From assembly GCA_973895155.1 (NCBI GenBank), contig OZ316894.1, positions 9,324,234 through 9,388,233 of the forward strand: a DNA stretch of 64,000 nt, given 5' to 3'. Every line of letters starts with the position of its first letter. Position 1 is the first letter of the stretch. Source of the stretch: Marsupella aquatica. Its lineage: Eukaryota; Plantae; Marchantiophyta. This document shows positions 1,481 to 26,504 of this stretch, piece after piece. The position numbers and the translations under genes are program-made. A model generated the notes under the pieces. It had not been told where the DNA came from and made no database searches. It was given only the letters and a program-made list of their open reading frames with translations.

Positions 1481-1999
1481 GTTGCTTAGGGCTCCATGGT
1501 TATGTGGGCAGGTTGTGCGTTTTAGGGGGTAGGGAATACATACAAAATACACAATCAAGTGTTCAAGATCAATACATGCCCATTGTACACAGTTCAATCC
1601 TGGAATGTGGCACCACAACATATGGGTGAGATCAAAATAGAATTGGGAAATTTACAAAATTCAGGAGGAAGTCGTGCAAACAAAACCCTAAACCCTATGA
1701 GCCCCATGCAAAACTGAGGTTCTCTAGTTGATTTTAGATCTATATCAAACAGTGACATCTTGAGGGACCTCAACGCCTGTAAAATGGCAAACTAGGCAAT
1801 CTTGGAGTAGTGATGGTGGGAGAGCCCTTAGAAGGAAGGGGTTCCCACACTTGTGTTCCCCTTCACCCTTTGTGTGGTCCTCACATGTTTTTTTGTTCTC
1901 TTTCCCTTCCCCACCGTAGAAGGGCCACCGTAGAAGGGGCCCTAACACTTTCTTCCTTCCCTTTTTCTCTATTCTCACTTGTGAGGTTTCCATCCATAC

Positions 2000-2022
2000 C
2001 TAAACCCTAAACCCTAAACCCT
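2000..2022 (-). repeat. Short interstitial telomeric repeat (TTTAGGG)x3 / telobox
   Basis: ctaaaccctaaaccctaaaccct. Shorter copies occur near 1683, 12964 and 15844. Confidence 0.75.
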
Positions 2023-4191
2023 TTCCCTCTTGTGCTTGCTTTCAACGTGTGTACGGACCCTGGTTGTACGAACATTAGATTTTCGACCATCTCAAAATCT
2101 GGAGTCTACGGGCTTGTTGGAAAAAGCTCGCCGAGCTGAATCCAACCATGTGTCACATGCCAAAATGGAGCTAAGACGGGGGAGATACAACAGATCGCAT
2201 TTTTTTGAGAATACGAGAGTTTTGAGGCCGTACGGATGTCCGTACGGTAGGAAGTCCCGACTTTGCAAGAGAATGAGGAGGTAGCAGCACATACAGGGAA
2301 ACCGTGATCCATGTTTTTCAAAGCCAGGGTCCCCCTGGTGTTGTACGGACGAAACGGTGAGAGACGATGCCCCTTGAAAACTTAAACGATCATATCTTGG
2401 CCGTTTGACCTTCGTTTTGTGCACCATTTACAAAGCCGTGATCAGGAAGAGGAGGGCTCGTCAGATCTGTTTTCAGAAGTGGATTCTGAGAAAATTTTAG
2501 TTTCGACAATTGTAGGGGCTCCCTCCTTTTACGGCGGACCGGTGGTGGCGATCAGGAGGATTGAGGCTGGTAGGCAGGGTAGATAGATAGGATAGGAGGT
2601 GGTGGACTCAAGTAAGTCCTTGTTTAGTAGAGTGGTAGTTGGCACCGTCGGTCCCGTAGTTAGATTAGGGTTTTTCACAACGTGTGTGTGCCGCACGCTT
2701 TAGGTTAGTTTATCTCTTAGATGTTTTTGACGGCGCCTCTAGGGTTGCCGCCGTTGTTGCCACTCCATGAGGGGTGCTTTGGTGTTTTTTTTCAGTATTT
2801 AGGGGGGAGCCCTGTAGTGAGAAGGGGGGGAACTCAGTCTAGTGTTGGTTTTAGGGAAGTTAGCTCATAGCCAGAAGGGGAAATCGAGCCAGAGTAGTGA
2901 GGAGAGGTGTAGCGCTTGCCCCAATGAGACAGGAGTTGGGCAGGAGGCCGGGTTGTCCTTGCAATGTGTTACCACTTTTTGCCAAAAGATATGGATTTGG
3001 TTTGATTCCTCAAGTTTTGGTGTGGCGTTATTTTTTCCGGCTCACGATTGTGTTCTTTCCCCAAGAAGTGTCTAAGGAATCCTTGCACGGATTGGTCAAC
3101 CATGTGAGTAGGGGGGGGGGGTGGTGACAGCACTCCACCAGCGACCAGCAGAAGTGTGTGTATGGCGTAGTCCATGGGACTTGATCAAAAGCAGAGCGGC
3201 TAGTCGATAAACTTGATCAAAAATTACATTTCCGGGAGCAAAAATAAACATATTCATCCTACATGCAATAGAATCCTAATAGCGTCCCTCCACGTTCCCG
3301 TCATACAATAACAAACAATTTTAGTAGGAGTAAATACGTATTTGTCGTGTAAATCGTTTGATAAGCAGGTGACACTCTCCTTCCCTTGTCTCTTTTTCTC
3401 TCCCTCCCTCTATCTCTCCCTCTCTCCCTCCCTCTATCTCTCCCTCCCTCACCTCTCTCTCTTCCTCCCTCTATCTCTCCCTCCCTCACCTCTCTCTCTC
3501 TCCCTCCCTCTATCTCTCCCTCCCTCGCCTCTCTCTCTGTCAAGAGCCAGTGTGCCTGCACTGCCCTGCTGTCCGCAAGCTAGAGGTGCCTCCTCCTGGG
3601 TACCCTCCTCATCGGGTACAATGTCCACCTGCTCATCCTCTATGATGGGGCGTGCCACTAACCCCTTAGGAGGGGTCCAATCCACCTGCACATGACATAT
3701 TCTATGTATCAATACATGCTGACACAATAGAGCTTATACAACTAGCATTGCCAAGGAATGTTGTTGGATTCCTACTTACAGGGAACTCTTCTGGGGTGGA
3801 ATTCAACTTGGCCCACAATGCCGTAGGGCCATACCGCTTGGAGTACAACCGTTCCTCCTTGCTAGGCTCAGCCTCTCGTCCATACTTGCGCTTCTACAGC
3901 AAAAACTAGTAACGTCGTAAGGGACATTGTAATGTACGCCGCGGAATGGGACATACATTCAATAACGTCGTTTTATGCCACGTAAAGACGAACTACATAG
4001 TTGTAACGTCGATGAGAAGACGTTTCACTAAAAGAATGTCGTTAGGGTGTATGTAAGAAGGAGGCTACGATGTGAGGGACGATGTTACTAGCGGATTTTG
4101 TGACGTAAAATTGGAAAACTCGACGTTTGCAGCAGGATTTCACCGCAAGGCTTTGGTACGCACAAACAGCAAGGAAATCAGGATGGGCACT

Positions 4192-4502
4192 TGTTAGATA
4201 TTGCTCTAGTCTTGTGACTCATGAGCTAACCACAGTTAGTCTAACTTGGGTTAGGACTTAGCTAATGTTAGTGGTAGTGCTGGTGTGCATATAGCTAGGG
4301 CTGATGCCAGACCCTGGTGGAACTTAGGCTCATTGTTACGAAGCTAGTTGAGAGATAGGGAGAGCTTGTGCTGTGGATGCTTGGTATGGCCGGTCGGCCT
4401 AGAGTGCAGTAAAGCTCTTGTGTGTTCCTGTGGACGTAGCCTCATGTGGAGGTGAACCACGTATCTCTCTGTGTCGACTATTGTGCGTTAGATGGTTCAT
4501 GG
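4192..4502 (+). repeat. 5' LTR of the copia element, 3'-truncated, no PBS visible
   Basis: Matches 9636-9946 with about 11 mismatches in 311 bp (counted by eye, mostly transitions). The last ~33 bp present in the 3' LTR are missing. Confidence 0.95.
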
Positions 4503-5774
4503 TTCTCGTCGGCGGCGTTCACTTTTCTTGTTGGAAACGGCACCGGTTAAGTAAGTAATCGGCTTTTTAAAGTTAAGGGCTAATCTTTGGCTTTTGAGGG
4601 GGTTTTAAATGGGTTTTAGTTGTGTATATACATGAGGTGTATACACACCTCGTACCGGCCCCTCATACTCCCCCTTGTACTTGCCGTTTCCCCCTCGCTT
4701 CCCGTTAAACCTAGCGCAGCGGTGAGCTGCGCAGCACCGGCCGGCGCCTCTCGCGCACTCGCCCGCATTTCTCTTGACCTCCCGCTTAACTCAGCGCCCC
4801 AGCCCCTTGTATTCCCTCGCGGTTGCCGATTGGCCCCTCCCGAGCCCCTGTGCACCCGTATACGCGACTGCGTATGTAGCTGTGATCCAGCTGCCGCCTT
4901 CGCCCCCTTGTATTCCCTCCGCGGCCCCGGTTTTAAACGTAGGTGGCTGCGGCTCTACCTGCTTGTGCAACTGTTTTTTTACTCTCGGCCCCCGCCTCAA
5001 TACCCTGTACGCCTCCTAGCCCGTGGATGCACCTTTGTTATACCTGTATTTTTAGTATTTAGGGATTAGCACCCCTTTAGGGCCCCTTTTTATGCCATTT
5101 TTTCCTCTCTTTTGGTTGTCCCTTGTGTTGGGACCTGCCGCCCTCCGTTTTAACCGCTCCAACAAGGGGAACGGTCCCCTATGAGACTTGTCGGACTGTG
5201 CGGGAATATTCCCCAAAAATAGAGAGCTTAGGGTTTAGGGCCGTCCGACAAAGATTCTGTCCGCCAAACGGTAACTTTTTTGGTTCTTTTTTGGCGAGGA
5301 CGTTGCCACTGGAGTTAGCAACGCTGTGCACCAATCACATCGCAATTTTGACGATGGGTTGTACTGGGTATTTTGGTTATTCTCCGAGGTGGTCAAAATG
5401 GGGGAGTTTCGCAAGGTTTTACCCACACCGACCAAAATTTGAATAACTTTTTCGTCGAATTTTGATTTTGATTTTGGCTTTCAATATTGGACTCCTAGCT
5501 TTGTGGGCTATGCGGCGGTGTTGAGTTTTGAGTTTTATGAGAAGTTTCAAAAAAAGACATTTTTTCGTGATTGTTTCATATGAGTGACTCGGAGGATACT
5601 GGAAGAATTGGCGTTGGTGGAGCTTCAGGATCAGGACGATCAGATGGTGAGTCTGAAAAGGAGCTGCTACCATTTGAGGAGGAACTAGTGACACCGGTAT
5701 AATCACCAGTGCGGCGTGCAGTGGAGGAAGTTGTATTACTACTAGAGCTATCGGTAGTAGGGAAGAAGAGGGAG

Positions 5775-8700
5775 ATGGCTAGATTTGGAGGAGTGAAGTT
5801 TGAGGTGGAGAAGTACAATGGTCGTACTGATTACTTGCTATGGGAGAAGCAAGTGAAGGGTGTTCTACGGGCCATGAGCTTAGCTCATCTGCTTTCATCG
5901 CGAGAGCAGTATGATGGAGAGGAGGAGATTTATGTGAGATAATGGAGACAGGAGTAGGTGATTGCTGTCAATGCAATGATGCTATATCTCAAGCCGCACA
6001 TCATCAAGCAGCTGGATGATTATGCAGATTGCGCGTCACTATTCAAGCTTCTAAGAGAGAAGTATTACCGAGAAGATGCGTCAGACCGGTTGTACAAGAA
6101 GTCTCTCTTGATGAGCCTCAGGCTCAAGGAAGGGAGCAAGATGCAGGATTACCTGGATGAGTTTGATAGTCTAGCGGTGGATCTGTCAAACCTGGAAAAA
6201 TGAGTTGAAGATGAGGATAAGGCCTTGCTTCTGCTAAGCTCCTTACCGCCGTCATATCAGGGCTTGAAACAGGTGCTCTTGTACAGAAATCTGAAGTCCA
6301 TTTCGTATAATGAGGTGGTGAGCTCTTTACTGTCTGATGATGCTCAGAAGAAGTTGGGTTAATCACAAACAGCATCTTCTTCTGGCACTGCGCTGAATGT
6401 GAACCGTGGAAGAGCAGCGCAGCGCACGAATGGGCAGAACAGGTTGAGATCTACATCATAGGGGAGATCTAAATCCAGAGGGAAATCGCAAGAGAGGAAG
6501 CCTTTTGCATGTTGGAATTGTGGCAAGCCTGGCCACATGAAAAGGGATTGTCAAGTAAAGGTCCGTACTGCATCTGCTAACGCGGCATCAAGCTCGCATG
6601 AGGTAGATTTACTCGATGATGATGACATATTGTGATGTCAAGGTTATGCTCTCAACGTAGTGTCAAATCCAGGTAGTGATGACTGGATTCTAGATAGTGC
6701 TTGTACTTTTCACATTTGCTCTATGAGAGATTTTTTTAGTTCTTACACGGATTCCAACGGGTTAGTGTTGATGGGAAATGGAATCCCATGTCAAGTTGTT
6801 GGACTTGGATATGTAAGATTTCAGATGTTTGATGGTGTTGTAAGAACGTTGAGGAATGTGAGACATATTCCCAACATGATGAAAAATCTTATTTCACTTG
6901 GAGTGTTAGAAGCAAATGGCCATCAGTGGAGTTCTGCTAATGGTGTCCTTCAGGTTTCAACTGGTACTAAAGTTGTATTGAAGGGAAAGAGACATAACAA
7001 TCTATACGTTTTGGAGGGCAGTGTAGTTTGTGATGAAGCCAATGTAACCTATCTCATGAGGAGACGGCCCGGCTCTGGCACTTTCGTTTGGGCCACATGA
7101 GTGAAAAAGTTTGGTTATTCTTTAGAATAAAGGATTACTTTCTAATTTATAATCTTGTAAGTTGGAATTATGTGAGCACTGTGTGTTAGGGAAGCAACAC
7201 AGGAAACCCTTTGGAGTTGGAACTCACACCAGCAAGGAGATACTTGAGTATATACATAGTGATGTGTGGGGTCCAGCCCCTACTCCCTCACATTCTGGAC
7301 GGTTGTAAGGAGCAGGGGATTACCCACCATCTCACAACAAGTTATACTCCTCAACAGAATGGTGTTTCTGAGAGACTCAACCGAACACTATTGGACCGCT
7401 CGAGGAGTATGTTGAGTCAATCATGTTTACCACATGAGTTTTGGGCTGAAGCTGTCAACACTACAACTTATTTGGTAAATTTTTCTCCATCCAGTTCTAT
7501 TGGATTCAAGACGCCATTTGAAATGAGGTATGGGCGTCCAGCAGATTACTCACATCTGAGGATTTTTGGATGTGATGCTTATGTGCTTACACCTTCCCAG
7601 CTGCGATCCAAGCTGGAGTCCAAGTCGAAGAAGTGCATTTTCCTTGGCTATCAGAAAGGTGTGAAGGGTTATAGGTTATGGGATCCAGTAACCTGTAAGC
7701 TAATTGTCAGTAGAGATGTGTCCTTTAATGAATCCAGATCATCAAAGAAGGGGGAGAGTTCTCAAGACTCCCATACTGACAAGGGAAAATCTCCCATCCC
7801 GGACCGGGTTGAGGGGGAGATTAGTCATGATGCCATTCATGATAGGAGAGATGGAGAAGCTCCGGGCTTGAAGCTGGTTCCTATGATGGAACAAGAGGAG
7901 TAGATTGTTGCTGGGGTACCTCAAATTCAACCAGCAGCAGTAGATCAGCCTGAGTCATCTACTAGAAGAACTTCAAGTTGTTCTACTAGAGCTCCTACCA
8001 GGTATGGTCAATGGGCAGACTCATCTAAGCTAGATGATATTGACATTGCACCTGATGATGATGACATGGCTTTAATCTTGGAAGAAGGAGAGCCGTCTTT
8101 GTATAGTGAGGCTTGTGCTTCAGAGCATAAGCATGAGTGGAATGCAACAATGCAGAGGGAGTTGCAATCTTTGAGTGACAACAAGACATGGGAGCTGGTG
8201 GAGCTTCCAAGAGGTCAGCAAGTGGTGGACAGCAAGTGGATTTACAAGTTGAAGGACAGTCCTTCAGAGGGTGGAGATAAGATCTACAAGGCAAGGCTTG
8301 TTGCCAAGGGGTTCACTAAGGAGAAAGGAGTGGATTACAATGAGGTCTTTTCACCGGTGGCTAAGTATTCCACAATTCGGATCTTGTGTCAGCTTGTTGT
8401 GCTTTTTAATCTGGTGATGGATCAGATGGATGTTGTTATTGCTTTTCTCTATGACAACTTGGAAGAGATGATCTTCATGAGACAGCTGATTGCTCAAGAT
8501 GAGACATGCTGATTGTGGCTAAAGATCAATCTGAGGTTGACAGTCTCAAGGCAAAATTGAGTTCTGAATTTAGGATGAAGGATCTTGGTAAGGCCAAGAG
8601 GATCTTAGGGATGGAGATTTTTAGGAACTCTGAAACTGGATAGTTGTGCTTGAGTCAAGGCCAGTATGCGAGGAAAGTATTTGCACGATTCAACATGGAG

Positions 8701-9439
8701 AACTGTAAGCCAGTGAGTGTTCTTTTAGCTTCACATTTCAAGTTATCATCGGCTTTCTCTCCTACAGATGCTGTGGAGAAAGGTTTGATGGCTAAGATTC
8801 CTTATGAGAAGGCAATAGGCAGTCTGATGTATTTGATGACTTGTAGTAGGCAAGGTTAGCAGATTCATGTCAAATCCAAGGAAGGTACATTGGGAAGCTG
8901 TGAAATGGATTCTCAGGTATGTGAGGGGAACACAAGACTATGGATTACTATTTTATGCCAGATCAGATAGAACGTTAGTTGGCTATGTAGATTCTGACTA
9001 TGGAGGCTGTCTGGATACAAGGAGGTCTACAACTGGGTTTGTATACACTCTTGGAGGAGGATGTATCAATTGGAAATCTACCTTGCAGAAGTGCATATCT
9101 TAGTCTACTACAGAAGCAGAGTATGTTGCAGCAGCAGAAGCAGCCAAAGAAGCAATTTGGTTGGATAAGTTGATCGCGGAGATGGGTTTAGAGCATGACA
9201 AAATGACTATAAACTGTGATAGTCAGAGTGCTCTTCACTTGGCTGCTAACCAGGTGATGGATAGCAGGGTGAAGCACATTGATATCAGGCACCATTTTAT
9301 CAGGCAAGCAGTGTCTGATAAAACTTTTGACCTAGTCAAGATTGATGGAAAGCTCAATCACGCTGATGCCTTTACCAAAGTGATTCCTTTGGAGAGTTTC
9401 TCAAGACACCGTGCTACTTTGTAGGTTTTGCAGTTGTAG
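5775..9439 (+). pseudogene. Copia gag-pol polyprotein pseudogene
   Basis: Gag MARFGGVKFEVEKYNGRTDYLLW, Zn knuckle CWNCGKPGHMKRDC, protease WILDSACTFH, integrase YTPQQNGVSERLNRTL, RT YKARLVAKGF...FSPVAK, RNaseH GYVDSDY...KHIDIRHHF. Many stops and frameshifts, with deletions near 7300 (integrase core) and 8490 (RT YVDD region). Confidence 0.97.
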
Positions 9440-9635
9440 TGCAAGTAGAGTTATTTAGCAATGTGTGACTATTTGTATATGGATTACTCATTCCTGTTAG
9501 GCTACGGCTTAGTTCTAGTTAACCCTTGTGGTTTTTAGGGGGAGACCTGGTTTGGTGATTGTCTAGAACTTCCCGCTGAGGATTCCATATGGTAGCATTT
9601 AGTTTAGTCCCCAAGACAAGAGTCAAGGGGGAGTT

Positions 9636-9979
9636 TGTTAGATATTGCTCTAGTCTTGTGACTCATGAGCTAACCACAGTTTGTCTAACTTGGGTTAGGA
9701 CTTAGCTAATGTTAGCGGTAGTGCTGGTGTGCATATAGCCAGGGCTAATGCTAGACCCTGGTGGAACTTAGGCTCATTGTTACGGAGCTAGTTGAGAGAT
9801 AGGGAGAGCTTGTGCTGTGGATGTTTGGTATGGCCGGTCGGCCGAGAGTGCAGTAAAGCTCTTGTGTGTTCCCGTGGACGTAGCCTCATGTGGAGGTGAA
9901 CCACGTATCTCTCTGTGTCGACTATTATGCGTTGGATGGTTCATGGGCTTGTTGTTACGAATGTCGTCTATGCTCAACA
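9636..9979 (+). repeat. 3' LTR of the copia element (344 bp)
   Basis: TGTTAG...TCAACA, directly after the polypurine tract and followed by the TSD. Confidence 0.97.
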
Positions 9980-11578
9980 GCACTTACATAGGTTGCGAGG
10001 AAGCCTCGCCATCCTCCCTGTCCCTAGAAATTGGTCACTACAAGCCGGCCAGTATGCTTTCGAGCTACTGTTGCTTTGTCCCCCATGCGCACTCGCTTTC
10101 CTATTGCCATGTCTGGGTCTGCCTCCAACTTGCTGACGATCATATTGAAATCAGCCTCAGTCATCCCTTCAGGTTTGTGGTACTCCCCTGTCTGCAAAGA
10201 TTTTGATTTTTGAACCTTGTTTTTCCACCTAAACCTTCTCTCTGCCAAGTGATTTACAATCTTTTGCCTCATGTGACGAAAGTCAATTTCTCTCCCATTG
10301 TGGAACCTAGCCTGCACATCATTAAGGAGTGTCTGCAATTTCTTGGTGTTATGTGACAAATCCTTCCAGGTTGTCCAACCCGGGCTGCAATGTTTTGCAT
10401 AGCAGTCTACACTCGATTGGTGAGTGCCTTCTCATCAAGAACATACGGTTTTGCATCAAAAGCTGCCAAAGTTATGGTCGGGAGCTCCTCTCTATTGCTG
10501 GGTTTAGTTGCAGCTTGCTGGGCAGAATTTGGTGCCTGAGGACAAGACGAATGTGACTATTGAGGTAATTGCCTCCTTCCCCTGTCCGCCTTTGGGTCTA
10601 CATCTACACGTCTACGCTCCTTTCCCTTCTCTTTTCGTCTTCTCCTATCAATGCTACTACTTTTGCTCCTAGAAGGGGATCTATGCTTTCTCTTCCTACA
10701 TTAATCCCGCGCCCCCATCCTCTGGCTCATATCTGTCATGTGGGATCCTGACCTGGCTTTTGATAGGAGTCCCAGAATGAACCTGAGAATCAAGCGCCAT
10801 TCCTAAGAAAGCTAGATCATCCCAACCATCATCTGGTAGCAAAGGGAACAAAGGTAGAGGATTCACTGAAGCCTCACCGAGGTCCCTCGAGCACTCTGCA
10901 GTGGGAATCTGTTCATCCTTGTCCATGGCAAGAGCATTGGCCTTGATATTGCCTAGGTACTCCAAAAATTGGGACTCTTTGCTTCCCACTCCTCCCAAGT
11001 ATCTCCAACTTTGATTGAAAGCGTTGATCAATGGGTGGGTGGAAAGCAAAGCTTGACACACCTTCTCCAACTCCTCTGAATCGTCCATGGCCACCTTGTC
11101 TGCATCAAAGTTCACACTGAAAGGAAGATAGGTTGGTCTAGACATTGGAAGGGCAACTGTCAAACGTAGAGGTCAGAATTGAATGAGAGAAAGAGAGAGG
11201 AGGGGAGTTGGGGTCCAAGATGTTGAATGTGCCTCACATTTGACTATTACCCTGACGTTTTCCTTTGGAAAATGCCGAGCTACACGCAAAACCACAAAGA
11301 ACCCCCGTTCTCCCAATGTAATGTCGTTTTTAACAACGTTCTTTTCATAAACCCTAAATAGTACGTTCTGGGGGATGACGTAAACGTCATAGTACGTCGT
11401 AAAATAGGGGGTTACGCTGTTCTGGGTTTATATAAACGACATTACATTGGGGTTTACGTAGGGTAGGAAAACATGTGGGGTTTATACAACGTATAAAACT
11501 CCATAAGTTTTTAGGGCTTGTTGCCATTATTTGAATGGTACTAATTGGTATCTGGCATGTATGTTGTTGCAGGGCCAT

Positions 11579-14500
11579 ATGGCAACATATGGGTCTTCCT
11601 CAACATACTATGACCATCGTGATGGAGGTACTTGTCACTGACGTAGACATGGTCATCATAGTAGGGAGAGGGATGAGTCGTTGGGGAGGAGGAGAGATCA
11701 GTCATGGGGGGGACTAGTGATGAGCCCCAGGAGAGGAGGAGCCATGGATCCAGGGATAGGAGGAGGGATGGGTCACGACGGAGGAGGAGGAGGGATGAGT
11801 CGCCAAGGAGGAGGGATGTGTCCCTAGGGATGACGAGCCATGACTCAGGAGGGATCACTCCCAGGGTAGGAGGAGGGTTGATCCCCTCAGCGATGAGTCA
11901 CGGGAGAGGAGGAGGGATGACTCACCATCTAGGCGCCATCGGTCCAGGCATCACCAACGCAGACATTGGCGGGATAGAAGGAGAGATACTAGATCCTTGC
12001 GTCCTGCACACCAGTATCACGACCCATCCACGCTGAGGAGGGATTTGGAGACGCTATGGCTGCCATTCAGGGGATTGGACCTATCCGTAAGATGCCTTGC
12101 CCATGTAGGCGGTGCAAGGGAGTTGTATGTCACGAGAGGACCACTGTCCTTAGCCATTTAGGGATCCATGGTCGTTATATACCGCCCACACAAGAGGTAA
12201 TTATAAGGTTTAAACATTTCAATTATTTAGTTGCTTTCTTTTTTTACCTAACTAGAAGTTGTCTAGGCTGCAATTGTTCATGCTTTCATACGCAAATTCT
12301 GAAGTTGTCCTGCTGGTCACATGTGGACAGATTCCTATTGTAGTGCCTTTGGCTGTGGACAGCATGAGAGAGATTGCGAGGCGTGCGATCACCCCTCTAG
12401 TACCCCCATCAGCATTGTCTGCCACATTGAGGGCTATAGACTGTGTTTTTGATGGGATTGTGGTGCAAGTGCACCTTATTGAGAGGGGAGTAGTGGTGAC
12501 CACTAGACTGAGGTCGATGGAGTCTCATCCACCTAGGATAGTGCCGCCACGTTGTCCTTTTCTTGATGCACCTTCTTTGAGAGTTGCGAGACAGTTGCGA
12601 GGGAGAGCCTTGGATATCATAAAGGACTCCTTCCCTGCCCAGTTTGGACTCCCCGACGACCTTCCAGTCAGGGAACCTATCATAGTCTGGGGTCGGCCGT
12701 GGGCCCTCCTCCCATCCACATTGGGACCTGACGTTGGCCTTGGCGTTTTTGCACTTGTGGATATAGTGGTCCCTCATGGGTGTGCCCCTGACGATTTACC
12801 TCAGTTTGGCCCAGAGATGGCAAATCTTGTCTCGACAGTGTCCGACCTTTGGTCGATATGGCATGTCACTGAAGATGGACCCTAGGTATTCTCGGATGGA
12901 TGGTTATCCACCTCGCATGGGAAACTTGGTGGGCTACATCAATAGCATTGTTGGGTGTCGGCGTTTAGGGTTTAGGCCAAACGCTGAGTGGCACGAGTAC
13001 CATGATGCGTGTCACCCACGTTTGCCCATGGCATGCACACATTATGTCTTGACGCATGCCACCCGCACCATTAGAGCAGGAGATTAGATTTTTGTAGATT
13101 ATGATTGGCATTGATCACAACTTTATATGTACATAACCTATTCAATACATGACATTCCTTGCACATATCATTATTCAAGCTTCATTGCACCCTTCATACT
13201 CTTTGTCTAATTATGAGTTTGCATTGGATATGCTTACTTATATATGTAGGATGGTGCCAATATTACTCCTACACCGCACCCATCCATGATGACTACATCA
13301 GCCCGTGCCTTCCACACTTGAGCCACATTACATTTCAGTGACGACGATGATGATGATGTCCATGATGTGGATGATGATGTGGATGATGATGATGATGATG
13401 TGGACGATGATGATGATAAGTACCATGATGCATATGATGTCGAGTTTGATGATGTAGTAGAGGATGAGGGGCCTGCACCTATTCTTGAAGAGGAAGCTTT
13501 TGCCCACCTGGTTGACATTCACTTTGGACCACATGCACCTGACGCTGATCACCCTACTATGGAAGTTAGTAGACCAGGAGGATTGGGACCAGCTCGAATC
13601 AGAAGCCAAAACTCCACTATTCGAGGGTTCTCCAACCTTGAGGTAGAGAAGCTTACGACTTCTCTAATTGTGAGAGTGTAATTGCAGGTAGTACCTCATG
13701 TTCTATTTTGATGAACTAATTGTGGTTTTGCAAATGCAGGTTGGGTGCCACTCTCTTGATGTTAAATTTGCAAGGAGTTTTCAATGGTTCGGATGTCCAT
13801 ACAGATGCACTATTGTAGTTGTTCCACAAGAAATTCTTGCCCCAACCAAACACTCTTCCTGGATGTGTGAGGGAGGCTAAGAAGTTACTTGTCTCCATTG
13901 GATTGGCTTTGGAGTCTATCCATATGTGCCCCGTTGGTTGCATCTTGTATAGAAAGGAGTATGCTGAGCACACTCATTGCCCAAAGGAACGGTGTGGCCT
14001 TCCACGATATCGACCAGACACCATTGGGGACAAAATTCCAGAGAAGGTAAATTACTGATGCGAACTCATGTGATTAGCGTCCACATACTCAGGTGCAAAC
14101 TTAACATCCAACTCAACGAAGCACATTCACATCTTACGTCTTCAAATTCGTTGATTTATTTATTAACATTGTATTAACATCAATGTGAATTGAATACGTC
14201 TTCTCAGGCGATGTAAACCCATTTTACGTCTCTTCGTGTGACGTAAAGTAACGTCTCTTTGTTGTTTACGTCATAGAAGACGTGGCTAAAATAAGATAAC
14301 GTGTTCGTAAATGACGTTAGGGTTCTAATATTGTCGATTCAAATGGTTTCACTGTTGTTATTATAGGTGTTGAGGTATTTCCCTATCACACCCTGGCTGC
14401 AACAGTTATATCGACAAAAACGCTTATCCACACTACAGACTTGGCATGCAGAGAACAAATCTCCACCAAGGATTATGAGGTACCACCAAGATAGTCCAGC

Positions 14501-17218
14501 ATGGAAACACATTGATATGACTTGGCCTCAATTTTCCCAGGAGCCAAGAAATGTCCGGCTGGGGTTGGCAATAGACGGTGTAAACCCGTACAAGCAACGG
14601 CGGAAGCCTAAGTCCATTTGGCCGGTTCTCTTGATTAATCAGAACATCCCTCCATGGTTGGCAATGAAAAAGGGCCATGTCCTCCTCCTTGCTATCATAC
14701 CTGGTTCTGAGGCCTACAAGAATCCAAATGTCTGCTTGGTACCAGCTTATGAAGAGCTACAAAACCTGTGGGAGGTTGGGGCACCTACCACAGATGTCAC
14801 TCGGGCTCCGAGCAATGGGAGGATATTCCAGATGAGAGTGATGATCACCCATTGCACCACCGATGGTCCAGGTAATTCACAAGACAACCTAGAGCATTTT
14901 TCTAATTGCATTGTATTGTACAATGTAATAGAGATAATGACATATTCTATGGACCCAAATTATCATGTGCAGGTATGGGAACAATATCTGGTTTGAAGGT
15001 GGCAGATTATTCAGCTTGCCCTTCATGTGGTCCTGAGTTGCATGGGAGGTACTCATCACTATTGCCCAAAACCACATATGAGGAAAGTAGGGTCCACTTG
15101 CCAATGGATGATCACTTGCGGCGAAACACAACTCATTGGGTAGAAAGTGAGTTAAGACCATGTCCCAATGGCCCTTCGGCTGAAGGGCAAATCCAATTGG
15201 CAGAGATGGTGGAGGCAAAGTTACTCAAACCCAAAGATTGTGGAGTAAATCGCCGCTTAGCTTTGTGGGACTTGCCTTATTGGAGGGTAAGTGAGACAAA
15301 GCAAAATAATGGTTAATTTTTCTAATTGCAAATTGGAGTCTTCACTGAAACTATTGCTATTGAGAAATTTATTAGTGAACTCCAACATTATTGTTTTTTC
15401 ATGCTCCAAATCCTCCAGGTCCGGTGGTTGTTGGACCCCATGCACATTGAAGTGAATGTTGCTAAGAATTTGTTGAAGCACATTTATGGACGGAATGATA
15501 CTCGTCAAGTCCGAGAGGATGTTGAGAATGTAGGAGTTGTGAAGTCTTGCTGGATGACAAGTACTGGGGGGAAACCACCTGCTCCTTGGGTATTGCCAAA
15601 GGAGACATTAAAGCAAATTAATGCGATGATTTGTGAGATGAAATTCCCTAGCCACTATGGAGCCGACTTTCATGGGTGCACTAGCAGAAATGACCACATG
15701 CCCCCAATAGGGCTAAAGTCTCATGATTATCACAAGTTGATTCAACATGTGCTGCCTGCTGTCTTGTGTTGTTGTGATGACTTGCGAGAGAGGCGCCTAC
15801 TTCAACTCACCATTTACGACATGCGCTCTATTTTCCTAAGTTTAAAACCCTAAACCCTAAGTTTAAAACTAGAGACTTGTTGTTTTGGGCTTAATTCTTT
15901 TCATTACCAATATTATAATTAATTAAGTTGGTAATTTGGGCAACCGCTTGGTGTGATTGTGATATTAAATCAATTGGATTGTATGAGGTGGAATATAGGT
16001 GGGTATGCGCTAAGGAGATAAAGGAGTGTGAGATTCCTTTGATGAGGGAGAGGTCAGCACGTGTGATGTGCAATATGGAGAAGGTGTTCCCTCCTTGTCT
16101 CTTTGACATGCAATTGCATTTGCTATGTCACCTCATGGATGAGGTAGCTATTGCTGGTACAGTTCATGCGCGGTGGATGTATTGGGTTGAGCGCTTCATG
16201 AAAGTGCTCAAGTCCATGGTGCGTCAACCAGATCAACCAGAGGGAGCATGACAACAGGATACATTATGTCTGAGTGCTCAGGGGGGATGATAGGGAGTTT
16301 GGACCCTACAACTCCCACAACTTGGGAAGAGGCACAGGATGAGGACAATGGTGGGTTGCGCTTGATGGGTGCGTCAAAGAAGCGGTCACTACATGACGAC
16401 ATTTTTTGACGGCAAATCCACAATTATGTGTTGGAAAACCGCCCTGACATGTCAGCTTGGAGGGAGTTGTACAGGTATGAGGCATTTAGATTGTGAAGTT
16501 TGACTTGTAGTTGGGGAGTACTTTTTTGTCCATAGGATACTGCAAATTTCTAACAATATTTGTGTATACAAATGCCAGGGCATGGAGGGAGCGACAACCG
16601 GTTATTGCAGGACATGTGCACACAATTGCATCATTCTGCGTATGGGCATTGGAGCACATGGAGAGGGTCCTGGCAAAGCATGGGCCCACATCCATCCCGA
16701 TTGATCTTCAGAACATCATTAGGGGGCCATCGATGTGGGCAACAACTCATACACACATGTATGAGTCGGGGCACCACTTTCGGACTTGGAGGACAGACCA
16801 TATGAAAAAGACAACATGTAACTCACAAGTGTTCATGTTGACAGACCGAGGTGATGTTGAGGTTCCTTATTGTGGCACTGTATTGGACATTTTAGATGTT
16901 GACTACTGTGTTAGAGGTGTGGTGGCACAAGTCCATCATACCACTACTGTGTTAGAGGTGTGGTGGCACAAGTCCATCATGTCACCTCTTGTGAGAGCCA
17001 CCATGGTGAAAGATGAGTGTGGATTTTATCGGGTGGACATGACTCGTGTGTCACCAAGCGGGACTGAGGTTAGTGATACCATAGTTTTTCCTAGCCAAGT
17101 GGATCAGTGTATTATGGTGCCCATGCAAACTATGAGAGGGTGGTCCATTGTCAATCCCATCTTCCCACGACGGAGGAAGGGTTTGATGCAATCAACAATT
17201 ATGGACGATGCTGATTGA
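11579..17218 (+). pseudogene. CACTA transposase (TnpD/Tnp2; transposase-associated domain, Transposase_21, DUF4218/DUF4216-like regions), multi-exon, decayed
   Basis: Predicted exons: 11579-12196 (R/S/D-rich, then CPCRRC..V.SHL..HG), 13250-13642, 13740-14046 (LPQPNTLP..IHMCPVGCILY), 14367-14871 (LRYFPI..DSPAWKHID..RNVRLGLAIDGVNPY), 14973-15286, 15419 to about 15836 (DPMHIEVNV, GLKSHDYH), 15999-16474 (FPP..HL..HARWMYWVERFM), 16579-17218. Several stops and frameshifts. Confidence 0.93.
12331..13114 (+). pseudogene. SET-domain (lysine methyltransferase-like) exon carried inside the CACTA transposase gene
   Basis: SET motifs in the expected order: GLGVFALVDI; MDG..RMGNLVGYINS; PNA; ATRTIRAGD*IFVDY; natural stop TGA at 13112-13114. 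One frameshift near 12810 and one in-frame TAG (13085-13087) at the conserved Glu position. Confidence 0.85.
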
Positions 17219-17675
17219 TATGACCATCACCACTGTCATGATGCTTTGGATGCATGTATATTGGCCGTAGCCATCCTTTACATATATACAGATCTGGTTG
17301 GACAGTCCTCATTTACGTCATTTATATAATTAAACGTCCCATTTGTAACACCCAAAATGACGTAGAAAACCCATACGTCGTCACAAAACCCCACCAAAAA
17401 TGACGTAAACCCCTAACTTAACGTCGTTCTTATGTAGCCCTACACAACGTGATACTAAATTGTGACGTAAATACACAGCCCTAAAGGACGTACATTGTGG
17501 AACGTCGTATTATGATATGTAAACTATTTTGGGACAACATGGAGGACAACGTAACGTGTGAGGGGCGACGTTACGCACAATGCACACACTGAAAGGGCAC
17601 ATTCACTGGCACAATCAAAATAATACAATCATGGGTGTCTTTATTAAGGTGATATGAACACACAAGTTATACATT

Positions 17676-18400
17676 TCACAACACATTGTCTTTCCACCAA
17701 AGCAATCCTAACCTATGCGAATCATGGAACCTAAACCCCACCACCAGCTGCGATTTGAAGTATTGTTGCTTAAGGGGTCCCTTCACCAGACCAGTAGTAC
17801 TCCTCATCGGCCTTCCTTGCTTTGTAGGAATCACGCCTCTGGCTTTGGTTCCATTACTTCCGCTCAACCGCTTCCCCAACCTTCAGCCTTTCAGCCTCAA
17901 CCTCAACTGCACAGCTTTTCTTGCAATCGTACAATACAATCCCAAGCTCAGTAGGAGATAACTCACATTTAGAGAAGGTAGGTGGATATGCCTCACCATC
18001 ATCAAGCTTGGGCAAATCATCAAGGATCTCATGATCACCCGGCTGCAACAAGAAGTCTCCTGGATCCAACTCCTTGTTAGCCAGAATGGAGCACTCAACC
18101 CAACGGATAGAAATGAAATGCACTGTCTCCGCAAAGTGCTCAATCAATCCAGGGTAGTCACTGAAGTGCTCAACAACATCTTTCCAAGTATAGGCCAACA
18201 AGTAATCTATCTCTAGGTACACAACTTCTCAATAACACCTCCACGACAAAAGAACCCACGCACAATCTTGTCCTCTTCACCGAGAGGAAGGAAGCAACAA
18301 TGCACATCCTTGAATAACTTGTGCACCATAGCTTAGCACTTTCTATCCCCCACAGAAATTTCTCCCTACTCAAGATGAGAGCTCACTCAAAAACTCTTGA
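17676..18400 (-). pseudogene. Unidentified accessory ORF near the right end of the CACTA element
   Basis: Protein-like minus-strand frames (YLEIDYLLAYTWKDVVEHFSDYPGLIEHFAETVHF...) linked by frameshifts and stops, bounded by two ACGT islands. No family recognised. Confidence 0.45.
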
Positions 18401-18559
18401 ATGCAAGTCTTGGAAGGTCTTGGCAGCTATGAACCAAAAGCCACGGGTAGAAAACCCAAGTCAGCAAGGAATTTGTCATTTACATCAACCAAAATGATGT
18501 CTTGCACGTATCATGTGGCAGAGTAACTCTCAAACGCCGATGAGAGCTCCATAATATAT

Positions 18560-18859
18560 TTAACCTTGCAGATTCCTACGTACTTTTAAACGTCGTCCAA
18601 CAAATTGTATATTATGACGCTCTGGACGACGCAATTAATTTTACCTCTTTCTAGACGATGTTTTATTACCCGGATGAGGAGACGTTAATTTTTGGTCGTA
18701 TCACACGACGTAAAAATAGTTCCGATTGTCGTGCCATATTCTACGACGTTGGCCTAACGTCTTCAGCTATATGGAACGACGTCTTCTTCGACGTGATCCA
18801 ATTGAACGTCTACGTTGAAGACGTTCATAGGGCACGCAACGTTAAAAATTGTAGTTGTG
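18560..18859 (-). repeat. Right ACGT-rich subterminal region and TIR of the CACTA element
   Basis: Dense ACGT cores (aaacgtcgtcc, cgacgttgg, gaacgtctacgttgaagacgttc) ending in aattgtagttgtg. Confidence 0.85.
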
Positions 18860-20650
18860 CAACTCCCAATGCCAATCTAAGTGTTTTGTGTGCGTTACCA
18901 ACTTAGCTCAGTGCCTTTGCTAGTGCTATGTTTCATACAAGTATCTCCATATTAGTCTCCACCAGATGGTTTTTCCGGAGGCCTGGGCCATAGAAGAGCT
19001 CAATGTCGGAGTAAGCAATGTTGGAACTAAGTGGAGTGGACTACAACAATGCAAACAAAGCTGTAGCCACTGAAAGACAACAAAATTTGGAGCTTGTAAG
19101 CTATGTAAAAGTAAGCAAGTGGTGGAGAGCAAGTGACATAGTCTTATTGAGCTAGTGACATAAAAACATTGCACCCATGACATAGTCTGATTTGTAGGAT
19201 GGTTGTAATTTATTTTAAGCATAAAACTAGTGATTTTGTGAAGTTATCCCCTTACATACATTCAGCAAAACAGAAGGACTAAGAAGCAAGCTTCATTTTA
19301 ATAATTGAAGGACTCAGAAGCAACCAGCTGGAAAGTGAAGGGAGGAAATATGGAAGTCCAAGGACAACTGAAGAACGAGAGGAAAAAGGAAAGGCTGGAC
19401 AAAAGGAAGACACAAACAATAAATTGAGCCATTTCTTCTCTCGACCAAAATTTCTGTTCTACAAAAAAGTTGAGGTTTGCATCTTCAACTTTTTGGAAAA
19501 CGGTGGTATTATTCTTGTATGCATCACGTTCTCACTCCAAATGACTAAACTCGAAAAACTTCTGTAAATACTTCATGACTAACTCGCTGTACTCTTGTAC
19601 ATTTCTTTCCAGGTTTAACTCGCTGTACTCTTGTACATTTCTTTCCAGGTTTGTTTACGTGAATGGCGGATCTGAAATCTTTCTGTGAGGAGAGTTTTAA
19701 TACGATTTGAGACAATGATCGTTTAGGGACACGCAAGTGTACGCAGTGTGAAATTGCTCCATTGAGACGATGATAGTGAGGGACACGCAAATGCATGTAG
19801 TGCGATTGGTGAAATTGCTTTATTGGGTTAAGTGGAACATCATAGCATTTACTCCGCAGTCATAGGTTGGCATAATTGCGATGCCTCATTCCAGTTTCAT
19901 CATATCAAACATAACGACGCAGTAGGACCTGCCATAGCGAGATCGTTCACATCGCTACCGCCTTTTACATAAGCGTGACCAGTATCCGACATTGCTCTGA
20001 TATATGCCCTCTCTTTGCCATGAATTCTTAGGTGTCTCATTGCAACCCAAAACTTACTACTACAACTACTGGTCCATCCAAGTTCCTGCTATATACAAGT
20101 GATAGGAAAGACAAAAAACTAGAGTCCGATGGAAAACAGCGTGATGACAATCATCCCTAAAATCCATGTTCGTTTAAGGCCTTGCTATGCTGGTGGCTGT
20201 TGAAAGAGATCTCTATGCAGCATCAAATTTTATACAAGATGAGATGGTGGACCTGGAACTTCTTGAGTTCCAACAGTGGGATTCCAACACGGTACACCTA
20301 AAGTGGGTCTCAGAACCGCTTAGTTCCAACAGTAAAATTCCATCAAAGTAGACCTGACTATTTAGAGGAAACAAAATTGAATCCATCAGATCAAATCATG
20401 ACAGGATAATATCCGTTCTATTCGGTCACTGGACCTAATTTATACAGCTTTCCTCAACCCCATCCTGAAAGGTCCCTCTGATAGCGTGTGCTTGGAGGGG
20501 GAGGAAAAAGGATGGAGTTCTGTACAAAGACTAGACATTCACTGTCAAAGAGCTACAGATGACAGCTTTGTCTTCAAATGGGTTCTTAAGAAAAGGACCT
20601 GCACATTTTTTGCTGCAGCCCAATTCCAAAAATTGCCTACCAATCCTGAT

Positions 20651-23600
20651 CTACCTAATCAAAAATTGATGATTCGACTGAGAAGATTGTGCTTGCCAGT
20701 GCGCATTCCCACCCATATGAACCTGATAACCATTTGTGCTATATTGTTGAACACGGCCATCTGAGCCAGGGGGATGTCTCCGTCCCCTATGATTCTGTCT
20801 ATACCGCTCCGTTCGTTGACCTTGGTGACCACCTGAAGGAATGGATGGAGAAGGCGATGTATGATGGCTTGTTGGCCGACTTTCCACTGCAGGGTAGGCT
20901 GTCTGAGAAGGCTCCACGAATTCTGCATAGCCTGTATTCAAAGTTTGTGGGTATTGAACTCTACGCTCCGCATCTATTGTCGGAAAGTCCACCTCCCTGT
21001 GGACATAACCACCTCCGCTATAACCAACATCAGGAGGGTAAGAGGTCAGAATATCTTCTTTCCTGTATCCAGAGTCCCAGTCCCTGTACCCAGAACCAAA
21101 ATCGGCGTAACCAGACATTGTATGGCCAGCCACCTGCTTCATGCTATGACCAACAGGGATAGATCTGGAGTCGAGTGGAGGATATTCCATTGTATATCCG
21201 TTCATACTGGGCGTCTCATAACGACGCCCTGAATATCCACCTCTGTTCTCACCCTGGGCATGGGAATCAAAACCACCACTAAGGTTTGCAATTCTAGTTG
21301 ATTGTCCCACCTTCCTGTATCCATTGGCTCTGTGGGCAGGACCCTGTCCAGCTTGATTTTGCTCAGCATAAACTGGTGCAGATGGCTTTTGACCCCAAGT
21401 CCCAGCGTTACACAAAGAACTATCTGCGAAACTTTCATGTCCTCTGTTACCTGGAAGATTGGTTCTTCTCTCATTCGCAGGTTGCGACCAACCATTTCCA
21501 CTTAGCCAGTTTCCGGTACTTAGTACCGTCACACCGTGATGTGTACCTCTGTGCCTTTGCCTAATAGATCCAAAGAGATAAGCTTTCAGGTCTTTGGCTT
21601 CCAGGACATCATACACAGGATCCTTAAGGTTGGAAACAGTCGACTGTAAAACCTGATAAATAAGCTCGAACTCTTTCCTAGAAACAGACCGAGCCACATT
21701 TTGAGTACGATCCGCGAAGTCCTCCACCTGGTATTGTAAACATGTTTGTAACGATAGTGTTTAGAAATGAGGGTCTAGGAATTTGCAGCATTTCACAATT
21801 CCTTAGACCTAACAAGCGATAATACATATGAAGTCGATGACCTTCCAGGAGCAAGATTGACAGAAAATCTCATCCTTTCGGCAATCCAACCGGACAGGTG
21901 AGGTCTTACAGAAATGCAGCCGATATGATTTTTTGGCCAGATCTTCGAGATCCACCTTCCTTCATACGTGCTGGAACACAACCCCTGCCCCCACATGCTT
22001 TCCACAGCTAACAACTGCGCCACAGTTCGGACATGGAATTTTAGAATTTCCTCCAATAATTCAACAGGGAGTTCAATGGCCCACTTGAGGACCAACACAA
22101 CGTCAACAAAACAGATCACATTAACTCCACTGTGCATACCCTAACCCCCTCCTCTCTTTCTCCTTCGTAGTGTCAGGGCAGGTCCCCAAACATAACCCGC
22201 TTGCCAGGGGTGTTCCAAGTCTCATAATCCGCAGCCAGTCTCGCCTAGTCTCATAATTTCAAAATCTAATGTGAAAAAACAGTGTCGGGGTTACGCTTGC
22301 TAACCCATGGCTGTAACCGCCTTGGACTCACCACCCTCGGCGATTACAGCCCATACCCCCCTAAAGGCCATGGTTTACCCTACACCAATATCATTTGTGA
22401 GAATATGCAAAGAGTACAAATCAAAGCTGGAACAATCCTGGAAAATACCTTGAGAAAAAACGAACCAAACAGTTCTGGGACACTTTCAGTGTTGTCCTTC
22501 CCAAATCCCCTCTCCTTATATTCCTTTACGCGAAGTTCCACAATTTGAAGACAGCTTCCAATTGCCGGTAAATGCAGCCCTGCTCTACCACAAGCCATCC
22601 GCGTTATCGACCGTAACTAGCATAGAAGTTTTTACCACAAACGGCCTGTGTGCAGAAGCCCTGGTTCAAGTATTATGGAGACTCAAGCATATCTCTATCC
22701 AGTCACAAGTACGACATTGGCACATTGTTCTGTAAAACAACCCGACATTATACCAAACCCCCCAATATCATGGAGAAACCGGGGACAAGCAATAAACTCA
22801 CCTTCCATGAAGACCGAAAATGGTGGAAGAATTGCAGGAGAACGAGTCTGTTGCACAGTTGCAAATTATGAAAAAAATGTAGCATGATCATTACACAGAT
22901 CCAAGGTTTGCTACACCTTCTTCTGCACGGACAGAACCATAATCTTACAATTTTCTAAACAAACATAAATTCATACATCGACCCTGTAGTCTTCACAGTA
23001 GGCCAGAGGATTGCAAACCCGTGGGAAATGCATTGAGAAGCAGTAAGTCAGCACGCACTCTTCAAACCGCTTAACGAGAGAGAAGAGCGAATGATAATGA
23101 CACAAGCTTATATCACTGCACCATGCTGTCTCCCAACGAATCACAGATAGAAGACAGTGCAGCTTTTCGAATTTTAAACAGGTAGTATCCCTCATTGTCA
23201 TAGGCTTCTCATTGCTATAACTTAACCTTGCCTCTTGTGATCTTGCTCAGCTCAGAGTTTATGGTTAGAGTGCAGAGACCTCGCCCTAGTCGTCCCAGGA
23301 AACTTTGGTTCTAAAGATATAGATATCAGTTTGACAGACGTGACATCTGCTAGTAAGCAAAACCATCAAAAGGATTGTCCCTCCATGCGACACGAGTAGA
23401 AGATCTCGTTACCTGCAAATGAAATGCAACAAGAAGACATATTGACAAGGAATTTAAGGTCCCATTTTTGGAGCTGTTGACATTATGCTTTTTGGCCCAA
23501 GCTTTCACCTGCACACATAGCCAAACATCAGCTCTTGAGAAACGCTAAGAAATTATTGGACGTGTCATACTCGATCTAAAGAAGGATGCATTTTGATGAG

Positions 23601-26504
23601 GTCATGTAAAAAGCTGAAACAGGAAAGAAGAACAAACCAGATAGCACAGTTGCCGGAACCTTGAATCCATGGTTGAAAACATCCCCAACACCTGCGACTT
23701 CAGGACTCCGTCATTATTCTCCACTGATATATCGCACTCTATTCCAGTTTTGCATTCGACAAATTTCACCACTGGTACTGCTGCGCGATAAACCGTCTCT
23801 ATCTTTTGGACACTTTGTCGTTGGCCTGCACAGCATCGCGAATATATATCAAATGCATAGTTCGAGACGAGCGTGTAGAAGAGTCCTACGACAAACATTG
23901 ACCTCATTGCAGACCTTTCGAGATAAATGGTTTGATTGGTAGTACGGTCTAGACAGACAGAGAGCCAAGTGGTTGGAACGAGACTTGACAATGGAAACCT
24001 ATATGGCTGCCCTAACAAAACGCAATCGTCCTCTATGTTGAATGAAAGAGCAGTATCATCCAACGACAACTCACCATTTTTTAGACCATACAAAGCCTTT
24101 GCAACCTTTCTCAAGTAATGGACTTTGTCATTACGAGAACGATCACACCTCCCATCAGCTAAATTGAGAGAGAGATCCAAATCGCTGCTTGAGGTGAAGA
24201 GATCCATCACAAACGAACCAAACGCACAGATACAGCTCCCTGAGGTGTAAATGTCAACATGCAGAGTCAGCCTCATTGAAACAATCTAACAAAGCCCAAA
24301 TAGTCACGAAATTATTCCATATTGAAAATCTAGTAGGTCAGGATTTAAGCAGATAGGAGTTTTGAACAGCACTTGCCCACCCTAGCTTTCATACATGATA
24401 CAATGACATGCTGAGAGATAAAACATCGAGTCCTCTTTGCCTCTTAACCCTAATACTTTACACAATGGTGCATGTCAAAGGAGATGGTATACTACCATAC
24501 TCAATTCCAAACCGCCGCATTGCAAGAGAATTGATAAACTTCACTCACCTGGAATCTTGTGATTCACAAACTTCGTGATGTATTGAATCACACTCTGGCG
24601 GGCATCCAAATCGGCTTGTTTCGGTTGGAGTTGACCATATACCTCGTCCAGCATGTCCACAAGCAACTTTTTGCTAGTCGGTGTGAACACAATTTGACCG
24701 ACCTGCTGCAGCTCCAACCATATTGCGCGCTCGTTCACGACTACGAGCAGTAAGAACAGAAGTTAGAAAGCGTTAAAAATACGAAGTAACTGCTCGTTCA
24801 AAGCCATTGAACGGCAGACGAACAGATAATGGAGGCTTCACTTTTGAACAAATATTCCACCTGATTAAACACGAGGTGATCTGTCTGGCGTGAAGAACGG
24901 CGAGGGTTTGCCCATGACTTTGGAGTAACCAACCCCTGTTTGGTTCTGGCAGACAGATATGGTCAGGGCAGTACTCACTGTGCGAGGGAGGGACAACGAC
25001 GCCGTCCGCTGAAGATGAAACATCCTCAGCATCATCATCTGAATCATACTCTTGAAGGTCGGGACTGGAACAACGGTCTCCAGATGCAACCTGCATTGCT
25101 CAGATTTCTAGTATTTGCTGATTCAAATCTGCAATCTAGAACGAAACACGTTTATCAGCCTCTTCAGAAAAGCATCAGGAGGTGAAGAAAGTTACAAAGA
25201 AATTGAGGAAACCAACTTACTACTGACGGAACGGGCCGACTCCGAACACTATACTAAGCTGGACAATCTGCTAAGTAGAAAAATATGCGTCGTCTACGGA
25301 GAAAAGGACGCACGAGACTCGGGACGCGCATAAACCCACGCAACCTAATTAGCTCTAAGATACTACGGTTCATTGCAGAAATGCCACAGAAATATCGCGA
25401 CCATTCGGCGGGAGCCTACAGGTAGCCGAAATGACGATTACTCTCGTTAGGTCCGCAATAACCAGACCACAGCAAACAAATTTCACGGACTACACAAGCA
25501 CTAGGCTGGAGGGTTATGTCGTGGTCTCTTGTGAACATCAGACAAACGGATACAAGGACCAGACAAGACGCGGCTGGCACCGAACAAGAGTCGCAATCGA
25601 AACGTGGGATTCAAGAGTCTCTAATTCGACTCAATTGCTCAAGTGATTCCCACTACGGATGAGGTCATTTCCATAACCACAGCATCACAGAATGAGATGT
25701 GACCTCAGTGAACACAGGTAAGGTGACAAGACATCGGGGGCGGTTTCGATCCCGCATTTGGAACGAGAGGTTCATTCGATAAACACAGAACGACTTACGG
25801 GTCGGACTAGCCACATGCTAAACTGGCGCGCCTGTAGAGCAGTATAAGAGCAGCACTCGTACGCCGCAAGCCACGAAATTGACGAAGGACTAGCTCGGGT
25901 AGCTTTAAAGCTCGAGGGCAATGCGGCGAAGGATTAGACCGTATGGATTGAACATTATATCCACACGAGCTAAGTCGCCAAATTGCACACTGACTGACAA
26001 AAGTGTTCGCATGAGTTTCGAATGACGACCGGACTAATTTGGACTCCAAGCGGAGGGGCAGAACTGAACTCGAACAACAACAATTGCAATACAACGGAGA
26101 GGGACGCCATCATTGGACTGGACCCGCCTGATTATCCTTCACAAGTTCACAATCTCGGAGCGAATACTGAAACAAGCGAAGTATCACAGGCCATATCAAA
26201 CACAGCTTCAAGACCGAAGTAGATAGCGGTACAAACAAAACATTAGAAACAGAGCGTCACGAGATGAACCCATCTCATCAGTGGCACCGCCGATTCCCCG
26301 CTATCTAACCAATGGTAGCTCTACTCCATAAAGTAACCCCGATTCTTCGCTATCCAGCGGTAGTTCTACACCACAGAATTTTTTTTATCAGACCTTTCTT
26401 GACCAAACCGGAATTAAAGTAAACGCGATACGGAGCGGACGCGGCGTCGTACCTGTCGCAAGCCTTAAGAACTTGTGCAACGAAGCTTTTAGCGACCTTG
26501 GCAT
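20651..26504 (-). CDS. HESO1-family terminal nucleotidyltransferase (non-canonical poly(A)/poly(U) polymerase), resembling the NTP4/NTP5-like clade
   Basis: Pol-beta NTase motif FGSFVMDLFTSSSDLDLS, plus VPVVKFVE..GIECDISVEN, VKAWAKKHNVNSSKNGTLNS, TRSPAILPPF and VEDFADRTQNVARSV. Approximate exons: 26504-26394, 25831-25799, 25090-24979, 24740-24549, 24240-24075, 23826-23639, 23508-23413, 22847-22802, 22580-22450, 22013-21909, 21727-20651. The three 5' exons are inferred from splice-phase consistency and are less certain. Confidence 0.9.

Follow-up and report, generated by a model that had tools for sequence, protein, structure and literature searches.

SETMAR (Metnase), a domesticated, single fusion protein, derives from one transcription unit that codes for both SET and a transposase. 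In the En/Spm transposon, the production of TnpA and TnpD by alternative splicing is established, as described in the accessible text of several accounts (PMC13547354; 10.64898/2026.08.24.746577; PMC4158355). Based on the available parts of other sources, SET genes are carried by HarbingerS and MuDR elements of Phytophthora and by Helitrons (PMC12730594; 10.1101/2025.02.11.637652), and PAG2, an accessory gene of the red-algal Plavaka elements of the EnSpm lineage, has a SET domain (10.1101/2025.02.11.637652). VANDAL VANC and Spm TnpA are described, again in accessible excerpts, as sequence-specific regulators that lower DNA methylation (PMC13547354; 10.64898/2026.08.24.746577; PMC12730594). 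SET-carrying transposons and En/Spm splicing are thus known separately. We did not find the combination in the literature searched, which was mostly open-access main text and did not extend to Repbase Reports, nor did any land-plant CACTA element with a SET exon inside an intron turn up there.

Here we analyze a 64,000-nt stretch of the Marsupella aquatica genome (contig OZ316894.1; hereafter, the window). A preliminary description of this DNA had proposed that one Cys/His exon can be spliced either to a SET exon or to a transposase.

Results

The window contains an element at 1023-18859 whose two ends agree at 15 of 16 bases and which has the 3-bp target site duplication CAA on both sides (Table 1). 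The terminal inverted repeats start with CAC, as expected of EnSpm/CACTA; the strict CACTA pentamer is absent, and CACAA is found at both ends. Because CAC..GTG ends with 3-bp duplications are counted as EnSpm in the available text of PMC12730594, the CACAA-ended element is still compatible with EnSpm. A Pfam scan detected TnpD-type transposase domains, with PF02992 and PF13960 above the curated cut-off and PF13963 below it. By these sequence features, the element is a plant-type EnSpm/CACTA transposon of ∼12 kb, not counting a retrotransposon insert.

Table 1. Features of the EnSpm element, in window positions
Feature	Position	Strand	Details
Target duplication, left copy	1020-1022		CAA
Left terminal inverted repeat	1023-1038	+	begins CACAACTACAATT
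Nested LTR retrotransposon	4192-9979	+	96% identity between LTRs over 312 nt; GCACT duplicated (5 bp)
Accessory ORFs divergent from transposase gene	10024-11172	-	no family assignment
First coding exon (predicted)	11573-12196	+	ATG 11579; decayed 24-nt low-complexity repeats; Cys/His motif
Short intron (predicted)	12197-12330	+	134 nt, 66% AT, GT..AG, phase 0
SET exon	12331-13114	+	family stop TGA 13112-13114; broken in window copy
AT-rich stretch behind SET stop	13115-13249	+	135 nt; predicted 3' UTR of SET isoform and tail of long intron 12197-13249
Acidic transposase exon	13250-13642	+	ends ...PLFEGSPTLR
Transposase exon with Cys cluster	13740-14046	+	homologous to Riccia model P0030 residues 359-471, E 8e-18
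Transposase_21 (tnp2) exons	14367-15313	+	PF02992, E 1.5e-36 and 1.2e-3
DUF4218 part of transposase	15919-16251	+	PF13960, E 1.1e-22
Minus-strand ORF pieces, right arm	17676-18382	-	no Pfam match
Right terminal inverted repeat	18844-18859	-	
Target duplication, right copy	18860-18862		CAA

The nested retrotransposon, which we take from its motifs to be Copia-like, splits the element's minus-strand gene. Its ORFs contain stops, its left LTR lacks a 3' part that is found in the right LTR, and a related LTR piece (89% identical) lies at 42902-43122. The accessory gene probably continues past the retrotransposon at 3702-3893. Its ORFs, which may be TnpA-like, gave no Pfam match under E 0.07 (best atlas match, 0.79). 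Clusters of ACGT motifs occur at both element ends and at four internal spots, one of them within a transposase intron (1001-1500, 3751-4250, 11251-11500, 14001-14500, 17251-17750, and 18501-19000), and are possible binding sites for an element protein. A 41-nt tandem duplication at 16902-16983 in the last transposase exon is likely another frameshift.

To the right of the element lies a minus-strand host gene (20651-24285) whose product has a palm domain resembling that of poly(A) polymerases (PF22600, E 4e-19) and is possibly a uridylyltransferase of the HESO1/URT1 type. The left end of the element is 9 nt past one copy (513-1014) of a 70% identical repeat whose other copy, in opposite orientation, is at 47403-47893. 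A near-perfect tandem repeat of ∼299 nt (three copies, >99% identical) was also found at 44687-45585.

The splice sites of the preliminary description, a donor at 12196/12197 and acceptors at 12331 and 13250, are present and in phase 0 as it stated. The donor reads GAG/GTAATT, the near acceptor GGACAG/ATT (12330/12331), and the far acceptor ATGTAG/GAT (13249/13250), and both acceptors are phase 0 relative to the frame of the Cys/His motif (CPCxxC-x11-H, coded at 12098-12196). This motif had been equated with the CACTA transposase-associated domain; the exon before the donor does match PF13963, at an E value (2e-4) that is below the curated cut-off. Two of the four YAG sites between the donor and the SET exon are in frame (12255 and 12330), and the in-frame acceptor at 12331 is therefore weak evidence when taken from one copy. 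Its conservation in other copies and in the distant element L001, described below, raises it above chance.

The SET exon had also been described as having its own stop at 13114. That TGA exists, but the frame opened at 12331 terminates at a TAG at 12883-12885, preceded by a frameshifting lesion at ∼12805-12817. The C-terminal half of SET is in the next frame: a tblastn search with P0001 aligned in frame +1 at 12547-12825 and in frame +2 at 12812-13111, and this half contains the second stop, the TAG at 13085-13087. At the lesion, the window has 13 nt where relatives code for 13 residues, and the FPFYGP motif is gone. The sequence at 12805-12820 is near the reverse complement of the missing FPFYGPK coding stretch, which appears as a loose end among the sister contigs; this similarity suggests a local inversion plus deletion. 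Exon 1 contains 10, 7, and 10 stops in the three frames, and the acidic exon is interrupted by a TGA at 13319-13321 and carries, near 13564, an insertion of 4 bases that, among the differences listed, are missing from 10 contigs of four runs. The window copy is dead in every exon examined and is incapable of encoding either isoform.

Sister copies were drawn from contigs of four sequencing runs, under two organism labels, that share 42 to 50% of sampled window words; one of these may be the DNA from which the window itself derives. For the region 12150-12450, where differences at a frequency of at least 8% were tabulated in full, 85 contigs from the four runs showed 32 differences, none of which fell at the donor GT (12197-12198) or the AG (12329-12330), and no indel within 12331-12450. 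At least four pieces (4 of the 32 listed) span the 12331 acceptor by at least 31 letters on each side. Diverged copies stop aligning at 12202 and realign from 12327, then stop at 13114/13115 and realign from 13245/13247, so that alignment picks up at the two acceptors; for the 13250 acceptor, conservation is drawn from these joints and from L001. One subfamily has the consensus donor GAG/GTGAGT at the same position, and the rival YAG at 12255 is missing in one contig each of runs X1 and X3.

The reading frame of the sister copies was also assessed. Of 18 variant letters between 12331 and 12450, 10 leave the protein unchanged when read in the 12331 frame, compared with 6 and 1 in the two alternative frames (expectation, 26%; p 0.008 by a binomial test, an indicative value since the variants share lineages). 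Position 13085 is G, giving the codon GAG, in all covering contigs (17, 9, 7, and 8) of all four runs, and one sister contig is a net 20 nt longer across 12669-12874, with the frame restored. A clean GT..AG intron skip was not found among the listed joints of the four runs, whose contigs retain introns; a joint from 12182 to 13458, present once in X1 and once in X3, may come from a SET-less or diverged relative.

We recovered L001 on a metagenome contig as the single relative among 111 pattern matches in such contigs; no relative locus was found in viral contigs (20, 128, and 226 pattern matches) or prokaryote genomes (36 and 126). Its SET is ∼50% identical to that of the window, its introns are unalignable, and blastn gave only three pieces of 38 to 51 nt, all within SET. 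The low-complexity first exon ends with CPCNHC..H..GRFDPATTE (PF13963, E 5e-4) at a donor GAG/GTATGA (705/706), followed after a 144-nt intron by the acceptor TATCAG/ATG (849/850), which is the first YAG past the donor. The SET exon (PF00856, E 8e-6) has its own stop at 1690-1692 and one TGA inside SET, and 189 nt separate its stop from the acceptor ATTCAG/GGA (1881/1882) of an acidic exon homologous to that of the window. All junctions are phase 0, and the layout (Cys/His, SET with stop, acidic exon) is the same as in the window. TGTA motifs behind the SET stop, numbering seven in the 189 nt of L001 and two in the 135 nt of the window, hint at 3'-end formation.

The first Met of the L001 acidic exon is at codon 60, within a motif common to the window, where the residue is Val. 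With no Met for 59 codons, this exon must be preceded by another phase-0 exon, for which the contig offers a single coding candidate, the Cys/His exon. This feature, from one locus, is the best evidence for the predicted long junction.

The donor and both acceptors are thus conserved in phase across copies, comprising the sister copies and one distant locus. The preliminary description had named a lack of conservation of the 12331 acceptor or its frame as an outcome that would tell against it; the sister copies and L001 keep both.

Searches with the N-terminal half of the SET exon identified 38 relatives at an E value of ≤0.001, and SET motifs are kept in relatives down to ∼30% identity. In P0033 (Logan) and P0097 (ENA), which are 55% identical over 408 residues, the Cys/His motif and a whole SET lie in one uninterrupted ORF. 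The fusion is therefore encoded, whether the source was RNA or intronless DNA; if the latter, these ORFs prove the fusion and not a splice of the 12196-to-12331 type. Eight of ten relatives looked up are gene models of Riccia sorocarpa, the sole organism named for the relatives looked up (30 proteins), which falls in the other half of the tree from the window. In five R. sorocarpa models, a Cys/His motif, which two of them have in degenerate form, is joined to all or part of SET, and models P0023, P0030, P0037, P0040, and P0098 instead splice SET into transposase exons, which confirms linkage but indicates that the models are unreliable on junctions. The annotation combined cDNA and ab initio evidence, according to the available text of PMC11735767. 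On a midpoint-rooted tree of 36 rows, the link between Cys/His and SET is found in both of the groups formed by the deepest split.

PF00856 was matched by 22 of the 37 relatives scanned at an E value of ≤0.05, 10 of them above the cut-off. The intact relative P0002, modelled at pLDDT 82, is predicted to adopt a SET fold, based on matches of the model to SET domains in Foldseek (E 8.5e-7) and VIA (Z 12.7; rmsd, 2.2 to 2.6 Å over 122 to 124 residues). The Cys/His module of P0033 (residues 71-110) was modelled as an independent hairpin and helix at pLDDT 87 to 94, set apart by a low-confidence linker. Sequence searches of solved structures gave nothing useful for P0001, and a profile gave only weak SET matches (best E, 0.023). 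Viral SET folds match at only 10 to 24% identity, too low to point to an origin. The structural matches of P0002 tie across H3K4, H4K20, H3K27, and PR classes, with no one class ahead as a guide to the substrate.

The GxG motif, the FPxxG-x-x-Y motif (its FPFYGP stretch being the part lost from the window copy), and the catalytic Tyr are present in relatives. In an alignment of 24 rows, G129, P152, G155, and Y158 are invariant and Y257 is present in at least 90%. Of 98 stored proteins examined, a redundant set with fragments included, all 64 that match both motif patterns keep the catalytic Tyr, and none of the 98 has the canonical NH-motif His, the motif being GYINS. Methyltransferase activity is not assured, given this missing His and the fact that several relatives end 2 to 4 residues beyond the catalytic Tyr. 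PR-type SETs such as PRDM9 also lack the NH His yet can be active.

Discussion

Based on the conserved layout, the fusion ORFs, and the kept SET fold, SET is, as judged from sequence, an old, selected part of this transposon family, and the layout is by the same comparisons a real, family-wide feature, seen here in a dead copy. The earlier view that SET is wired into the element rather than accidentally inserted can thus be retained for the family, given the conserved acceptor and frame and the ORFs of P0033 and P0097; the window copy itself can encode neither product.

We propose, with a probability of about 70%, that in intact copies the SET exon is an alternative last exon: splicing to the near acceptor would give a Cys/His-SET protein, and splicing to the far acceptor the transposase. 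One donor (12196) would be used with two acceptors. The short junction, to 12331, would yield a protein of ∼470 residues ending at the SET stop, from a transcript likely cut and polyadenylated within the 135 to 190 nt behind that stop, and the long junction, to 13250, would skip SET and yield the transposase. The Cys/His-SET protein is predicted to methylate lysines. It might further serve the element; the likeliest ways would be to place a chromatin mark that protects the element's copies from silencing or, alternatively, to methylate an element protein. The proposal builds on the sites, phases, and element ends, the conservation of the layout, the single Cys/His-SET ORFs, and the predicted SET fold of the intact relative; the steps that we infer from these are supported in falling order from use of both junctions, through polyadenylation and enzyme activity, to the anti-silencing role.

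Two other arrangements would keep the exons and change their partners. The Cys/His exon could belong to the SET gene only, with the transposase encoded by its own gene farther downstream or spliced from an exon of the 5' UTR. Such an arrangement would account for the single Cys/His-SET ORFs, for an in-frame Met-Met in the acidic exon of the window (13286-13291), and for the fact that no Cys/His-acidic-tnp2 protein without SET turned up in our SET-led searches. We consider it unlikely, as the L001 acidic exon has no early Met and is nevertheless phase 0 and homologous, Pfam calls the motif "transposase-associated," and the 135 to 189 nt from SET stop to acceptor leave scant space for a promoter. 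Conversely, SET could be a nested gene that starts at its own Met or from a noncoding leader spliced to 12331, with the Cys/His exon, in this subfamily, reserved for the transposase. The window (12364), P0002, P0044, and P0047 share the position of a Met just inside the SET exon, an ATG immediately follows the acceptor in L001, and an upstream leader exon is likely (acceptor at 11572; 275 in L001). The ORFs, however, were predicted by gene callers, which place the start of an ORF at a Met, the acceptor phase fits the Cys/His donor in both elements, similarity of diverged copies begins at the acceptor, 33 nt ahead of the Met, and relatives have Cys/His-SET fusion ORFs, all of which make a nested gene rather improbable.

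A SETMAR-like chain of Cys/His, SET, and transposase, in which SET is an internal cassette spliced to the acidic exon from a donor located no later than the end of SET, is suggested by Riccia models P0023 and P0040, which exit SET at an EIF motif into acidic sequence, and by P0030, P0037, and P0098, which join half a SET to transposase. These joins vary by model, as expected of single-isoform gene prediction, and remove either half the fold or the catalytic Tyr. The Tyr is retained in all of the motif-matching proteins, and ORFs stop shortly past it; a single chain is very improbable. Least probable of all, at a few chances in a hundred, is that the SET exon is a piece of a host gene carried along passively, with an acceptor in frame by chance. 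The window copy does decay neutrally (of the 19 SET variants with the best support, 6 are silent), and in-frame AG sites are common, but passive carriage would explain neither the motifs kept by the 38 relatives, nor the bias to silent variation among copies, nor the same layout in L001.

Returning to the alternative last exon, an extended version would be that CACTA elements of the bryophyte type bring along a lysine methyltransferase encoded in this way, with the shared zinc-binding module targeting it to the element, a permissive histone mark being written, and acceptor choice switching between anti-silencing and jumping. We regard this version as doubtful; if true, it would represent a catalytic anti-silencing system in land plants. 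The significance of the layout lies in a SET exon that is predicted to be tied by splicing to the first exon of a transposase and that is kept across elements with SETs only 30 to 50% identical. With it, one can ask directly if a transposon sets histone marks for its own benefit and if splicing controls this. The splice test is feasible now, since an R. sorocarpa genome and long-read cDNA are on record.

Among described systems, maize En/Spm and Arabidopsis ATENSPM3/7 are likewise CACTA-type, with a 3-bp target duplication and two products predicted from one gene (accessible text of PMC13547354 and 10.64898/2026.08.24.746577). The parallel with TnpA and TnpD drawn in the preliminary description is a loose one: here, the second product would be a protein with a SET fold, encoded within an intron of the transposase gene, rather than the DNA-binding TnpA, the termini are CACAA rather than CACTA, and splicing is predicted from sequence. 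HarbingerS, MuDR, and Helitrons resemble this element as DNA transposons with a SET gene, but they belong to other superfamilies and hosts, and the available descriptions present accessory genes and mention no shared exon. Plavaka is, by description, alike in being an EnSpm-lineage element with SET; PAG2 is, in the part of the source available, a separate gene with an N6-adenine methylase fused to SET, whereas the element reported here has a plant tnp2-type transposase (PF02992 and PF13960). The SETMAR SET domain is among the structural matches of the P0002 model. Unlike SETMAR, this element has terminal inverted repeats, a target duplication, and many copies, and its SET ends at its own stop. 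Finally, VANC and TnpA are, in their accessible descriptions, element-encoded factors acting on the element's own chromatin state, and the role that we propose would be the same but for a catalytic fold, predicted here from a model.
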